64,000 nucleotides of DNA from an uncultured Candidatus Saccharibacteria bacterium (GTDB taxonomy: Bacteria; Patescibacteriota; Saccharimonadia; Saccharimonadales; Saccharimonadaceae), in the NCBI GenBank assembly GCA_964608555.1, contig CAZSPU010000002.1, positions 1,395 to 65,394 of the forward strand. Direction: 5' to 3'. The position numbers and the translations under genes were made by a program. Below the pieces are notes generated by a model. It did no database searches. It was not told the origin of the DNA and worked only from the letters and a program-made list of their open reading frames with translations. The stretch's first letter is position 1; each line of letters begins with the position of its first letter. Positions 9,200 to 61,781 of the stretch are shown here, piece after piece.

Positions 9200-9419
9200 T
9201 TCGTGCGTAGTGGAACTGTAAGTTATGGCGATTTTATCTTCGGAGCTGGCATTTATGGTTATGTTTGGACTTTGCATACCCTCTTGGATTCCGAATTTCA
9301 TGATACCTACTATTTAGGTTTCGATCCAAGTCAAACTTTTCTGCACGGTAACAGCTTTAAAAGGCGTTATCATGGCCATTCTCTCCGCTGCTTAGTACGG
9401 TAAGGATAATGGTAATGGA
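9200..9419 (+). repeat. Variable cassette copy 3
   Basis: TTCGTGCGTAGTG...TCTCTCCGCTGCTTAGTACGGTAAGGATAATGGTAATGGA; 68 open codons FVRSGTVSYG...HGHSLRCLVR*. Confidence 0.9.
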
Positions 9420-9456
9420 TTGATACGCCTCACCAAAAGATTAAAGATTCTTGCTT

Positions 9457-9530
9457 ATTACAATCAAAAACCCGCACGAGGCTAACTCGCATGATATGTA
9501 CATGATAGCACAGTTGAGCTATTTTGTCAA
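9457..9530 (-). ncRNA. Promoter plus ~40-nt hairpin motif, candidate sRNA (copy A)
   Basis: TTGACA-17-TATCAT followed by ATATCATGCGAGTTAGCCTCGTGCGGGTTTTTGATTGTAAT; nearly identical to 23167-23206. Confidence 0.45.
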
Positions 9531-9533
9531 GTC

Positions 9534-9744
9534 TTCGTGCGTAGTGCAGATATTTTTGTGGAAGGTATGACTGGAGATACTATAATTGGCTATTTTTGGA
9601 CTGCTAATGCTGAATTTAGCTCCGAGTTTAATAATTCTGATAGAGTGTTTTGGAATCAGAATACAAGTTATGTAAGTGCTACATGGCAACGTTACGTTGG
9701 TTATCCTCTCCGCTGCCTAGTACGGTAGGGATAATGGTAATGGA
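9534..9744 (+). repeat. Variable cassette copy 4
   Basis: Both arms match consensus; 65 open codons FVRSADIF...[10 protein letters not shown]. Confidence 0.9.
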
Positions 9745-9843
9745 GCTATGAAAGCTGAATGACAGTTTTTCTTCATGCGCAATAGTTTTAATATATACGA
9801 TAAAACTGTATTATCGTTTGAAGATTATTTATTAATATTTCTA

Positions 9844-9950
9844 GGTAGGTATACTTTTTGGAGATGATTCGGAGTTACGACGAGAAGTAGCGCACAATAC
9901 CCGTAACGACGGGCTATTGTGACGCGCATCTCCAAAAAGCTATACCTACC
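9844..9950. repeat. 107-bp fold-back element with 23-bp terminal inverted repeats and an internal hairpin
   Basis: GGTAGGTATACTTTTTGGAGATG (9844-9866) pairs with CATCTCCAAAAAG-C-TATACCTACC (9927-9950). Inner stem CACAATA-CCCGT/ACGGG-C-TATTGTG. Confidence 0.75.
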
Positions 9951-9955
9951 GCCTT

Positions 9956-9987
9956 CTGCCTAGTACGGTAGGGATAATGGTAATGAA
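9956..9987 (+). repeat. Cassette 3' arm only (5'-truncated copy 5)
   Basis: CTGCCTAGTACGGTAGGGATAATGGTAATGAA, with no 5' arm or core upstream; abuts the recO stop codon. Confidence 0.85.
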
Positions 9988-10653
9988 TTATCCGTGTTGA
10001 CAAATTGGTAAGAGGTTTGGTAGGAGCGACTCAATTTGAGAGATCTTGGCAACTGATTGTAATTTATTATTTAATAAAAGTCGTGCTAGTTTGATTTCGG
10101 CGGCGCCGATATTACCGCGAACGTCGGCGCGTAAGGCTTTTTCGAGCGGATCCCAAAAATAGTGTAAATTAGGCGATAGTTCCTCGCTATTCGCATCACG
10201 ATAAAGATTAATTTCCTCGCCAGTGGCACGCAAAAAATTAAAATTAAACCACGTTGAGACGATGGGCTCCGCAATCCCGGCGTTAAGCCCCGCCAATGAC
10301 TGCTGAAGTAAACTAAAATACTCTGGGTTGTCGGTTTGTTCGGCGGCGCGTTCGAGCTTCTTCAGAAAACTTGACGCAAGCTCAAGTTTAGTGATATTAC
10401 TAAGAATATTTCCATAAAAAGTCAACATCCGCGCACTAGTGAGTATGGCGAGAGACGAGCGGCCATTATGTACTACGATATCTGCTACAGAAAAAAGTTC
10501 GATTCCACCTGCGAGGCGAGATTTTTCTTTACGAGCTCCGCGGGCGAGGGCGGAAATTTTGCCTTCGGGCGTGAGAAAATTGAGAATGCGGTCCGATTCG
10601 CCGTAGTTGGTGCGGCGCAAAACAATACCTTGTGTATGAACGTCGGATGACAT
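9988..10653 (-). CDS. recO: DNA repair protein RecO
   Basis: TQGIVLRRTNYGESDRILNFLT..GKISALARGARKEKSRLAGGIELF N-terminal OB-fold pattern. Confidence 0.92.
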   Translation of the reverse strand: MSSDVHTQGIVLRRTNYGESDRILNFLTPEGKISALARGARKEKSRLAGGIELFSVADIVVHNGRSSLAILTSARMLTFYGNILSNITKLELASSFLKKLERAAEQTDNPEYFSLLQQSLAGLNAGIAEPIVSTWFNFNFLRATGEEINLYRDANSEELSPNLHYFWDPLEKALRADVRGNIGAAEIKLARLLLNNKLQSVAKISQIESLLPNLLPICQHG

Positions 10654-16907: not shown

Positions 16908-17118
16908 TTCGTGCGTAGTGGCGAAGTTTGGTATGCTGCTTATGTAGGGTGGAATAACTGTGCAAATATTTGGTCGTCAAGTGCTGAAAATGGCAACGCT
17001 TTCTTAAATAGTTTCTTTTTAAGTTTTGATGAGTTAAATATTAAGCCGTCCAACGTTCTCGTTCGTCTTGATGGTCGTCCTCTCCGCTGCCTAGTACGGT
17101 AGGGATAATGGTAATGGA
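16908..17118 (+). repeat. Variable cassette copy 6
   Basis: Both arms match consensus; 65 open codons FVRSGEVW...DGRPLRCLVR*; preceded by a perfect 10-bp hairpin (16866-16890). Confidence 0.9.
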
Positions 17119-24446: not shown

Positions 24447-24660
24447 TTCGTGCGTAGTGATGTAGTAAATCCAGGCGGCTTAATTTATAATGTTGGATTA
24501 TGGAGCAACTTATGGTCGTCGCGCGCCAATACTTGGGCTGGACTTCAACACGCCCTCATTTTATCATTTAATACTTTAAATGTTGACTCCTCTGCCAATG
24601 GCGAACGCCATCACGGCCGTCCTCTCCACTGTCTAGTACGGTAGGGATAATGATAATGGA
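24447..24660 (+). repeat. Variable cassette copy 7 (first of tandem triplet)
   Basis: 5' arm perfect; 3' arm CCTCTCCACTGTCTAGTACGGTAGGGATAATGATAATGGA; 66 open codons. Confidence 0.9.
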
Positions 24661-24667
24661 TATATCC

Positions 24668-24887
24668 TTCGTGCGTAGTGGGCTTGTTCATGTCAACCAT
24701 TTCATTCATTGGCCTGGATCTAATGGTTTTTATTGGACATCTCGTGCTGACGATTCTGGATTTCAGCGAAGTTTTAATTTTACGTTTGCTATATCAGGTG
24801 TAGACCCATTCAATAGTTATGGTAATGGCGACCGTTCCTTCGGCTTTCCTCTTCGCTGCCTAGTACGGTAGGGATAATGGTAATGAA
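24668..24887 (+). repeat. Variable cassette copy 8 (second of triplet)
   Basis: 5' arm perfect; 68 open codons FVRSGLVH...FGFPLRCLVR*. Confidence 0.9.
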
Positions 24888-24907
24888 TGATGCAGAACAA
24901 ACAACTC

Positions 24908-25124
24908 TTCGTGCGTAGTGATGTTGTTAATGCGAGCGGGCAAGTTAGTTCATACGCGGGCAACAATGGCTTAGTGTGGTCGTCGCGCGCTGGAACTAGT
25001 AGTGCCTTTCAAACTAGTTTTGATTTACCTTTTAACGCTACGGATGCTTATCCATCTAACAGTGGTGATCGTTGGCATGGCATGTCTCTCCGCTGCCTAG
25101 TACGGTAGGGATAATGGTAATGGA
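24908..25124 (+). repeat. Variable cassette copy 9 (third of triplet)
   Basis: 5' arm perfect; 67 open codons FVRSDVVN...HGMSLRCLVR*. Confidence 0.9.
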
Positions 25125-30502: not shown

Positions 30503-30731
30503 TTCGTGCGTAGTGATAGGACTGAGAATATCGGTTTTCTTTATTCTGGACACACAGCTCACCTTTGGAGCAGTTATGCTAATTATGGTACACATTTTCA
30601 GGACAGTTTCAGTCTTAGCTTCAATCTTACTATCAGCACTTCAGACGTCTACCCCTCCAACAACTTCTACAACTACCGTTACTTCGGTTATCCTCTCCGC
30701 TGCCTAGTACGGTGGGGATAATGGTAATGGA
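30503..30731 (+). repeat. Variable cassette copy 10 (stop codon TAG changed to TGG)
   Basis: 5' arm perfect; 3' arm CCTCTCCGCTGCCTAGTACGGTGGGGATAATGGTAATGGA; FVRSDRTE...[13 protein letters not shown]. Confidence 0.9.
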
Positions 30732-52541: not shown

Positions 52542-54440
52542 TTATTCTAGGATAGCTTTAATGCGACGGACGCCGGCCGAGGATGATTCTTCTTTGGTAA
52601 TTTTAAATTTGCCCAACTCGCCAGTATGTGTGACGTGGGGGCCGCCACAAATTTCCATTGAAATTACTTCTTGTAAATCTTCTGGCGTCTCGCCGCTTCG
52701 ACCAATCGCGTAGACGGTCACGCGGTCGGGATAGCGATCGCGAAAACTACCATGAGCATGTAGATCGTCGAAAGCATAATCTTTGTCGTACTCAGCCGAG
52801 ACTACTGGATAATCAGCCGTAATCCAGGCGTTGACGCAATCTTCAACTTTTTGGAGTTCTTCGGGTGTCAACTTATGGTCGACATTGAAATCAAACCGCA
52901 AGCGCTCTGGGGTGAGATTGCTGCCTTTTTGGGAAATATTTGGATCGACTTCTTTTTGTAGAGCAGATAGGAGCAGATGGCAGGCAGTGTGATATTTGAC
53001 GGTTTGGTCGCTCGTATCAGAGAGGCCACCCTTAAACATACCCTTGGAAGCGGTCTTGCTGCGTTCGCGCTGCTGATCGAGAGCTTGCTGGAATTCGGTC
53101 TGATAATCGTCGGAGAGTTTCAGATTGAGCTTGTAAGCTTCTTCGACACTGAGCTCGAGCGGGAAGCCGTAGGTATCTTGCAATTTGAATAATTCGGCGC
53201 CCGTCAACAGCTGATCAGCCCCAAGCTTGCGTAATTCTTTGACACCTTTACTAATGGTCTTGCGGAAGGCGTTTTCTTCTTTAGTGAGAATTTCTAGGAC
53301 CTGGGCGCGGTTTGGCAAAATATCATCGGAGAGCTCAGCGTAATTTTCGGCAATAATTGGGATGATCTGCTCCAGAAAATCTTGGCCAATCCCAAGGTCC
53401 AGCGCGCGCAGGACGGCTCGTCGTACGAGCCGTCGCAGGGCGTAGCCCTGCGCCTTGTTCGAAGGAACAAGGCCCTGCGCCGCGAGCAAATATGCGCCAC
53501 GTAAGTGATCGGCGATAATACGCATTTCGTCAGTATTATTATCATACTTTTTGTGCGAGATTTCCTCAAGCTTTTGAATAATCGGCAACATTAATGAAAT
53601 TTTGAAAACATCAAAACTACCGATCGCCGCCGCCGCTAGGCGTTCCAAGCCACCACCGAAATCGACATTTTTGTGCTCCAATTCCGAAAAACTGCCATCT
53701 TCATTGCGCTTATATTCCATAAAGACTTGGTTGCCAATCTCCATGAAACGCGCGCCGTCGGAAGCTGGGTGACTTTTGCCGTATTTCGCAACATCTTGCT
53801 TGTCTTCGCCAAAATCGTAAAATACTTCGGAATCAGGCCCGCAGGGATCGCCCAAAGGCGTGGTATCAATGCCGCCACCACGGCTCCACCAGTTTTCTTT
53901 GTCGTCATAAAAGAAGATCCGCTCCCCAGGCTTGATACCGCGCTGATCGCCATTAGCAGCCGAGCCGATTTCGGCAATCTTAGCATCAATCCCAGCCTTT
54001 TTGAAGACGCGCTGCCAGATCTCGGCGGCTTCAGTATCCTTAGGAATGCCATGCTCCTTGCTGCCAATAAAACAAGTGACGTAGATTTTGTCGGGATCAA
54101 GGCCGATGTCCTGAGTCAGGAACTCAAAATAATTCTGAATCTGTTCCTCTTTGAAATAATCGCCCAGAGACCAGTTACCCAGCATTTCGAAAACGGTCGT
54201 ATGACGCGGATCGCCAACATCCTCAATATCTTGTAAACGCATAGAAGGCTGCGAATCAGTCAGGCGCGTCCCCTCAGGATGCGGCTGCCCCAATAAATAC
54301 GGCAAAAGCGGCTGCATGCCGGAGCCAGTAAACAGCGTGGTCGGGTCGTTTTCGAGGACTAAGGGCGCCGGCGGAATCACTTTATGCCCATGCTTAACTT
54401 GGAAATCTAAGAATTTTTGGCGAATTTCATTTGCGTTCAT
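52542..54440 (-). CDS. alaS: Alanine--tRNA ligase (short form without C-Ala domain)
   Basis: ANEIRQKFLDF, DPTTLFTGSGMQP, HTTVFEMLGNWSLGDYFKEE, VDFGGGLERL, HTACHLL, EICGGPH; ends at GVRRIKAILE. Confidence 0.95.
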   Translation of the reverse strand: MNANEIRQKFLDFQVKHGHKVIPPAPLVLENDPTTLFTGSGMQPLLPYLLGQPHPEGTRLTDSQPSMRLQDIEDVGDPRHTTVFEMLGNWSLGDYFKEEQIQNYFEFLTQDIGLDPDKIYVTCFIGSKEHGIPKDTEAAEIWQRVFKKAGIDAKIAEIGSAANGDQRGIKPGERIFFYDDKENWWSRGGGIDTTPLGDPCGPDSEVFYDFGEDKQDVAKYGKSHPASDGARFMEIGNQVFMEYKRNEDGSFSELEHKNVDFGGGLERLAAAAIGSFDVFKISLMLPIIQKLEEISHKKYDNNTDEMRIIADHLRGAYLLAAQGLVPSNKAQGYALRRLVRRAVLRALDLGIGQDFLEQIIPIIAENYAELSDDILPNRAQVLEILTKEENAFRKTISKGVKELRKLGADQLLTGAELFKLQDTYGFPLELSVEEAYKLNLKLSDDYQTEFQQALDQQRERSKTASKGMFKGGLSDTSDQTVKYHTACHLLLSALQKEVDPNISQKGSNLTPERLRFDFNVDHKLTPEELQKVEDCVNAWITADYPVVSAEYDKDYAFDDLHAHGSFRDRYPDRVTVYAIGRSGETPEDLQEVISMEICGGPHVTHTGELGKFKITKEESSSAGVRRIKAILE

Positions 54441-60998: not shown

Positions 60999-61781
60999 TT
61001 AGATATGAAATAGTCTGTGCGCATTATTTGTAGTTTGCTCCGCTATTATATTCTCTGCCACACCCATTTTGTCCGCAAGGTAGGCCGCAATATCGCGGAT
61101 ATACCCTGGCTTATTCATTGTACCACGATACGGTACTGGTGTCAAGAAGGGAGCATCTGTTTCTAATAACATCTTTTCTATTGGCGGTAAAGGGAGCGTA
61201 CTGTAAGTAGCTAGGCCGTTGACGCCAACATAAAAATCACGATCAAGGATCTTTTTGAGGATTTTCTTCGAAGCCGTGAAACTATGTACGACGCCAGTAA
61301 TCTTGGGAAAGTTGTCAAGCACTGCCAAGGCGTCATCAAAGGCTTCACGAATATGCAGCGAAACTGGTAATTGCAGATCTTGCGCGAGTTGGAGCATGGT
61401 TTCGAAAAGGTGAATTTGCTGGTCGCGACTGTACGGCTCATAATGATAATCGAGGCCGATCTCCCCAATCGCCACCAATCTCGAATCTGCCCGAGTAGTC
61501 TCCGTACGCAAATGGTCAAAATCGTCCGGTTTCATCGTATAACGCTCAGCGCCCTCGGGGTGAATGCCATAAGTCCAATAAATTCCCTCATGCTCTGCTG
61601 CAAAGTCGGCGGCATGCCAAGAATCATCCGGATCAGTGCCGATGCAAATAATCTTATCGACCCGATTAGCCGATGCGTGCTGCAAAATCTCCGGCACTTG
61701 CTCACGCGAAAACCACTCCTGATCGTGCAAATGGCAGTGTGAATCCACTAAATAACAACTTTCCTGACCTGTTTGACTCAT
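60999..61781 (-). CDS. tatD: TatD family DNase
   Basis: LVDSHCHL, GIHPE, AIGEIGLDY, LHIRE, VVHSF, LLETDAPFLTP; start 6 nt after TGCTATAAT. Confidence 0.93.
   Translation of the reverse strand: MSQTGQESCYLVDSHCHLHDQEWFSREQVPEILQHASANRVDKIICIGTDPDDSWHAADFAAEHEGIYWTYGIHPEGAERYTMKPDDFDHLRTETTRADSRLVAIGEIGLDYHYEPYSRDQQIHLFETMLQLAQDLQLPVSLHIREAFDDALAVLDNFPKITGVVHSFTASKKILKKILDRDFYVGVNGLATYSTLPLPPIEKMLLETDAPFLTPVPYRGTMNKPGYIRDIAAYLADKMGVAENIIAEQTTNNAHRLFHI

Follow-up and report, generated by a model that had tools for sequence, protein, structure and literature searches.

The Saccharibacteria live as epibionts of ultra-small size, and their genomes stay below 1 Mb. We analyzed a 64,000-nt stretch (the window) from the genome of an uncultured Candidatus Saccharibacteria bacterium, whose assembly comprises 989 kb in 44 contigs and is 95.6% complete. 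A 107-nt fold-back element lies at positions 9844–9950 of the window, facing the recO gene (9988–10653, minus strand), which is convergent on it. The element is followed by a five-nt linker and the 3' arm of a gene cassette (together 9951–9987, plus strand); this arm lacks its first bases (CTGCCTAGTACGGTAGGGATAATGGTAATGAA), restarts at 9956 and stops at 9987, where the recO stop codon (9988–9990) abuts it. An earlier interpretation made from the letters of the window without database searches (the sequence-only reading) had already described an arm that begins mid-sequence five nucleotides after the hairpin and ends flush with recO, and these positions agree with it. The same reading took the cassette to be truncated at its 5' side, which is true of the first bases of the 3' arm but not of the unit: this keeps a degenerate 5' arm at 9775–9789 (CTTCATGCGCAATAG; consensus CTTCGTGCGTAGTG) and, at 9790–9843, an AT-rich leader of ~55 nt with stops in every frame, both on the plus strand. 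The leader is common to four element-bearing units of the window genome (C2, C14, C12 and C9:25360); its C2 and C14 versions differ at five of about 60 nt. Because the paralogous units on contigs C14 and C12 combine this leader with an intact 5' arm (TTCGTGCGTAGTAG) at the equivalent position, we regard 9775–9987 as a complete cassette-shaped unit with the leader and the hairpin as its payload.

Other cassettes of the window lie at 392–815, 9200–9744, 16908–17118, 24447–25124 and 30503–30731, and 281 cassette 3' arms are present genome-wide. The cassettes encode hypervariable C-terminal segments, and their interiors are unrelated in sequence and length. They may be akin to the C-terminal portion of a lectin-like domain of the Fibrobacter type (FISUMP); searches of seven cassette peptides against Pfam and NCBIfam returned no credible match. 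The open frame upstream of the 281 arms has a median length of 78 codons and a maximum of 233 codons, the longest one looking non-genic. A search upstream of these arms for an expression site, with a long N-terminal part, found none. Related species (G016 and G010) have cassettes with different 3' arms. Between two cassettes of the window, a near-consensus promoter (TTGACA-17-TGnTATCAT) and a terminator-like hairpin with a T-run follow each other at 9530–9475 on the minus strand, and could be predicted to yield a short minus-strand transcript.

Computed folding of positions 9835–9995 gave a minimum free energy of −71 kcal/mol for the plus strand, compared to −38.6 ± 3.8 kcal/mol for shuffled sequences (z −8.45); the minus strand reached a z of −7.12. 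In this fold, 9844–9866 pairs with 9927–9950 to form a closing stem (P1) of 23 pairs with a lone bulged base at 9940, recovering the 23-bp terminal inverted repeats with one bulge that the sequence-only reading had noticed. The outer part of P1 is specific to this copy, and the inner part of its 5' strand (CTTTTTGGAGATG) is the conserved inner stem of the family described below. The stem encloses two modules. The first, at 9867–9889, is a junction with a left mini-helix, in which TTC (9868–9870) pairs with GAA (9884–9886) around a conserved loop (GGAGTTACGACGA). The second is the right arm at 9890–9925, consisting of a GCG/CGC base and a hairpin B, whose stem covaries and whose loop region is conserved (CCCGTAACGACGGG). 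This inner hairpin, with its loop at 9905–9908, has 15 pairs and two bulges, so that the 12-bp hairpin proposed from the letters is its stem core and not the full stem. An alternative pairing of CCTACCG with CGGTAGG, likewise proposed, is present in the sequence but is unused by the minimum free energy fold.

A BLAST search with the 107 nt detected seven copies in the window genome, none of them inside a gene. One is identical, two share 82% identity with compensatory changes in both stems, and three are longer forms of 188–275 nt with extra hairpin modules inserted at two points. The C2 and C14 units show 100% identity across the roughly 150 nt that make up the element and the 3' arm. We built a covariance model (R1) from an alignment of eight copies from four genomes, in which 22 of 37 consensus pairs show a compensatory change. 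Applied to 151 genomes of the genus to which the window genome belongs (Candidatus Nanosyncoccus-type Saccharibacteria), the model yielded about 600 matches in 121 genomes, with 1–11 copies scored per genome. In an order-wide set of 151 genomes, only the window genome and one congener matched, and the remaining 149 gave no match; these represent 119 other genera, two of them from the same family. An exact 22-nt core motif occurred in 32 stretches of DNA of a public species genome collection, all from Candidatus Saccharibacteria or Candidatus Nanosyncoccus records of mouse, ruminant and human gut. When the window, the hairpin's region and, separately, the 275-nt long form were compared with Rfam, nothing reached the gathering score and only chance-level matches appeared at E up to 10, and a literature search found no description of such elements in Saccharibacteria. 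A unique, unconserved hairpin, which the sequence-only reading had named as a refutation of its own proposals, is contradicted by this multi-copy, genus-wide distribution.

The family elements measure 100–118 bp and share a Y-shaped fold. The inner part of the closing stem is conserved (about CUUUUYGAGRGG / CCYCGARAAAAG), and its outer 8–12 bp differ from copy to copy with complementarity kept. A three-pair left helix (helix 4) encloses the conserved loop GGAGYUACGRCGA and covaries, with UCC/GGA in the family and UUC/GAA in the window copy. The right hairpin combines a conserved loop with a freely covarying stem (helix 5), where both sides change in 9 of 12 pairs. Across 78 distinct copies, standard pairs fill 94.9% of 2842 cells, compared to 64% in column shuffles and 40–50% when partners are slid. 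Both-side changes were found at 32 of 37 pairs (shuffle mean 27, with none of 500 shuffles reaching 32), and the covariation score of 0.763 was likewise attained by none of 500 shuffles (0.19). Both the folding energy and the covariation thereby bear out the structure suspected from the letters. Nearly all pairs are Watson-Crick, and among the exceptions G-U (83) outnumbers A-C (41), a ratio that mildly favours a single-stranded form of the plus strand and is partly an ascertainment effect, because the covariance model itself favours G-U.

Five copies in one genome (G020) have identical cores and unrelated arms, and another genome (G010) contains the same arms with different cores as well as the same cores with different arms. 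In orthologous obg copies of several species, both stems are kept complementary through compensatory changes, and the element core is more conserved than the flanking DNA of this essential gene. Gene conversion among cores together with template-switch correction at palindromes would suffice to explain these core and arm patterns, and likewise the identity of the C2 and C14 elements beside a diverged leader, without any function; alternatively, selection on a single-stranded intermediate would explain them.

A second small hairpin module (about GUAGGA..CGAG-hairpin-YGAG.YGACG.CC) is nested in long forms of the element (L007:1540-1627, L007:1667-1750 and L003:1581-1662). It also stands alone (L020, L011 and L012; genomes G010 and G008), and in G023 it occupies a different insertion place, inside the hairpin B loop. 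Probably, this module is a separate small palindromic family.

Within the genus, 43 of the 78 distinct copies are located inside conserved genes (obg, queA, polA, tatD, alaS, leuS, der, pheT, xth, tgt, methyltransferase genes and others), with open reading frames of at least 50 codons on both sides. In every one of these 43 copies, the host frame continues stop-free through the element and then resumes the normal protein. Since the frame is kept in all of them, which excision would not need, we argue that the insert would be retained in the mRNA and be translated; judging by its frames, the ribosome would read through it and produce a hydrophilic loop of ~31–38 residues. Three sense frames recur, encoding the peptides FEGIRSYDEDERA.PVTTG.GDAPR (frame A), EDPELRRG.AR..RDGG (frame B) and KGSGATARTSATALQRQ (frame C), and the loop avoids those variants by which the frame in use would acquire a stop. 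The in-gene copies are oriented sense in 41 cases and antisense in two, a bias that stop codons do not explain, because the antisense frames are about as open. According to local GC skew, the plus strand of the element is on the C-rich strand in 50 of 57 copies, a correlation that yields no conclusion, since the sense orientation of in-gene copies is a confounder and the window genome has its seven copies in mixed orientation.

The obg, tatD, alaS, tgt and methyltransferase genes of the window genome show clean gaps of 23–38 residues relative to their occupied orthologues, and therefore the element is an insertion polymorphism and not an ancestral sequence. Two such empty alleles of sites occupied in congeners lie in the window itself, in tatD (~61302–61703, minus strand) and alaS (~53040–53393, minus strand). 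Among the 35 copies outside open reading frames, three are flanked by long open frames on each side: by their inspected flanks, one lies in the rplJ-rplL spacer and one at a gene 3' end, and L105 is the third. No frame-breaking split gene was demonstrated in this set of 35. A copy in the rplJ-rplL spacer occupies the same place in two species (L040 and L042, in G093 and G016). In four species, weaker second R1 matches occur ~800 nt downstream of the obg insert (L045:2310-2423, L055:2276-2387, L077:1554-1667 and L093:4246-4357), and L074:6444-6565 looks like an older, decayed copy within leuS (peptide ...EDEVPDTRDGGLAGHRPE...).

The window copy has stop codons in all three sense frames. Its family frame A reads EMIRSYDEK*RTIPVTTGYCDAHLQK..., closed by the TAG at 9887–9889 (frame 2 translation). 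The remnant of the cassette 3' arm is in phase with this frame (...AFCLVR*), which fits an original in-frame landing in a cassette, the chance of such a shared phase being one in three. The copy would have been inserted into, or carried within, a silent cassette. We regard it as an ordinary decayed member of the family, intergenic and untranslatable, with a stable hairpin beside the recO stop as its sole evident role.

In one genome, an identical 126-nt block is present in both der and leuS; as the arms are included, this is evidence that the whole unit moved recently. Each block is bounded by GCGAGC on both sides, which, for this single pair of copies, may point to a target duplication of 6 bp or else to a target motif. 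At the nucleotide level, an empty der site was sought in the der loci of 150 genomes, the closest of which shows only 76% protein identity and is uninformative. Searches for mobilising factors in the window genome returned no match for rve, none for RVT_1 at E ≤ 1, one for DDE_Tnp_1, two generic matches for tyrosine recombinases and one for Y1_Tnp (C43:241-603, an IS200/IS605-type open reading frame of 162 aa on a 2.2-kb low-GC contig). Across the genus, Y1_Tnp is found in 6 of 151 genomes (the window genome and 5 of 150 others) versus 121 of 151 for the element. Of the associations that the sequence-only reading had envisaged, that with an IS200/IS605 TnpA thus finds no counterpart across the genus and that with a reverse transcriptase none in the window genome, and among the families searched we identified no transposase or other mobilising partner. 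We propose that movement would proceed via a strand-specific, probably single-stranded intermediate and involve some further factor. Stem complementarity might be kept either by selection on this intermediate or by template-switch correction at palindromes. In the window genome, near-identical flanks in different relative orientation surround two element copies (C3:9959-15008 and C9:25360-30036), reflecting either a large repeat, an inversion, or strain heterogeneity in the assembly.

We consider it highly likely that the fold-back belongs to a family of palindromic insertion elements, as an intergenic copy that can no longer be translated, and that this family behaves like the Rickettsia palindromic elements (RPEs). 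The MITE- or REP-like option of the sequence-only reading takes this more specific form, a multi-copy, genus-wide palindromic insertion element that here lies within a cassette-shaped unit.

It is unlikely, though it would account for several observations, that the hairpin is a functional signal kept in place by selection, acting strand-specifically as a structured RNA or as single-stranded DNA. It could act as a recognition hairpin for processing, excision or homing, and the 3' position in the cassette array could indicate a role in the cassette system. The very strong covariation with conserved loops, the two-to-one excess of G-U over A-C on the plus strand and the sense bias are more in keeping with a single-stranded structure that has a function than with purely selfish DNA. 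Pointing the same way are the compensatory changes between orthologous obg copies, with a core more conserved than the surrounding gene, and the complete identity of element and 3' arm between the C2 and C14 units next to a leader that has diverged. The G-U excess is weakened by its ascertainment component, and the preservation of the frame in every in-gene copy would be needless for an excised RNA. As for the cassettes, all seven copies of the window genome lie 5–150 nt from, and just downstream of, a same-strand cassette 3' arm, and in G010, a cassette-rich relative, the same holds for five of its six copies. This association probably reflects the duplication of a composite unit, because cassettes fill much of the intergenic space and the copies of the window genome are leader-sharing paralogues and not independent events, although chance and duplication may not account for all of it. 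A structured RNA of the cassette system, as the sequence-only reading had suggested, is moreover hard to reconcile with seven elements for 281 cassette arms and with the position of most copies in other genomes, within housekeeping genes and with no cassette nearby.

A related proposal concerns the core alone: we think it rather improbable that the Y-shaped core is a selected, strand-specific single-stranded signal and a possible substrate of a new hairpin-directed activity of excision, homing or gene conversion. If it were, this activity would also keep the cores of a genome alike and restore complementary arms private to each copy, and in cassette-rich genomes it might help to copy silent C-terminal cassettes.

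It is very improbable that the hairpin serves both recO and the convergent cassette array as a transcription terminator. The hairpin is stable and directly follows the recO stop, as such a terminator would, but a T-run is absent after the stem on both strands, a terminator scan finds nothing at the hairpin, and members of the family interrupt coding sequences midway, at places where terminating transcription would be lethal. The sequence-only reading had allowed for a hairpin that merely terminates recO, an idea to which the missing T-run applies equally. Least plausible is a retron- or DGR-type template RNA whose truncated arm was left by 3'-primed reverse transcription: the long closing stem recalls the a1/a2 pairing of retrons and the cassettes do encode hypervariable C-terminal segments, but the 95.6%-complete genome gave no RVT_1 match at E ≤ 1, a remnant of the 5' arm is present, the cassettes vary in length and over their whole interior rather than at adenines of one template, and relatives carry this element in frame within obg, queA, alaS and further genes. 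For the window, the hairpin should hence not be taken as part of a retroelement or as an RNA of the cassette system, and, more generally, the inserts inflate and distort protein models in annotation.

Returning to the reading as a palindromic insertion element, the closest known parallel is the RPE. Both are hairpin-forming repeats of 100–150 bp scattered over a reduced genome, both are found between genes as well as within conserved protein genes, where they are in frame and leave the host open reading frame intact, and both vary in presence or absence between related species, neither having a known transposase (PMC2229807). For RPEs, translation has been shown experimentally, an RPE-containing guanylate kinase being translated and active (Ogata et al. 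2000, 2002, as summarised in PMC2229807), whereas here it is suggested by frame preservation. The present family further differs in belonging to another phylum, in sharing only a Y-shaped core of ~65–85 nt with an outer stem private to each copy, and in a covariation much stronger than expected of decaying selfish DNA. The likeness is one of behaviour; membership in the RPE sequence family is not claimed, because our family was found only in one genus of Saccharibacteria.

Coding MITEs (the 107-bp form of Correia/NEMIS, ERIC and YPAL) are similarly small, with terminal inverted repeats, stable stem-loop transcripts and open frames fused to host open reading frames (PMC2229807). Their termini are conserved for transposase binding, whereas in the present family the termini are variable and the interior is conserved, a possible target-site duplication is seen in one copy pair only, and no cognate IS was found. 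The attC sites of integrons are also imperfect palindromes that conserve structure over sequence, with bulged bases and a variable centre, and they too lie beside promoterless cassettes. However, an attC follows every cassette, as opposed to seven elements for 281 cassettes here, and the present family resides mostly inside housekeeping genes, in the case of the window in a genome with only the two generic tyrosine recombinase matches. Long inverted repeats with both arms translated are likewise found in protein genes of Nematomorpha mitochondria (PMC6649704); these are organellar and form no dispersed family with a shared core. Neither RPEs nor MITEs have been described as having outer arms private to each copy around a core that is conserved and strongly covarying, and, together with the identical cores within a genome, this architecture points to a mechanism of mobility or correction that is unexplained by the described bacterial repeat families.
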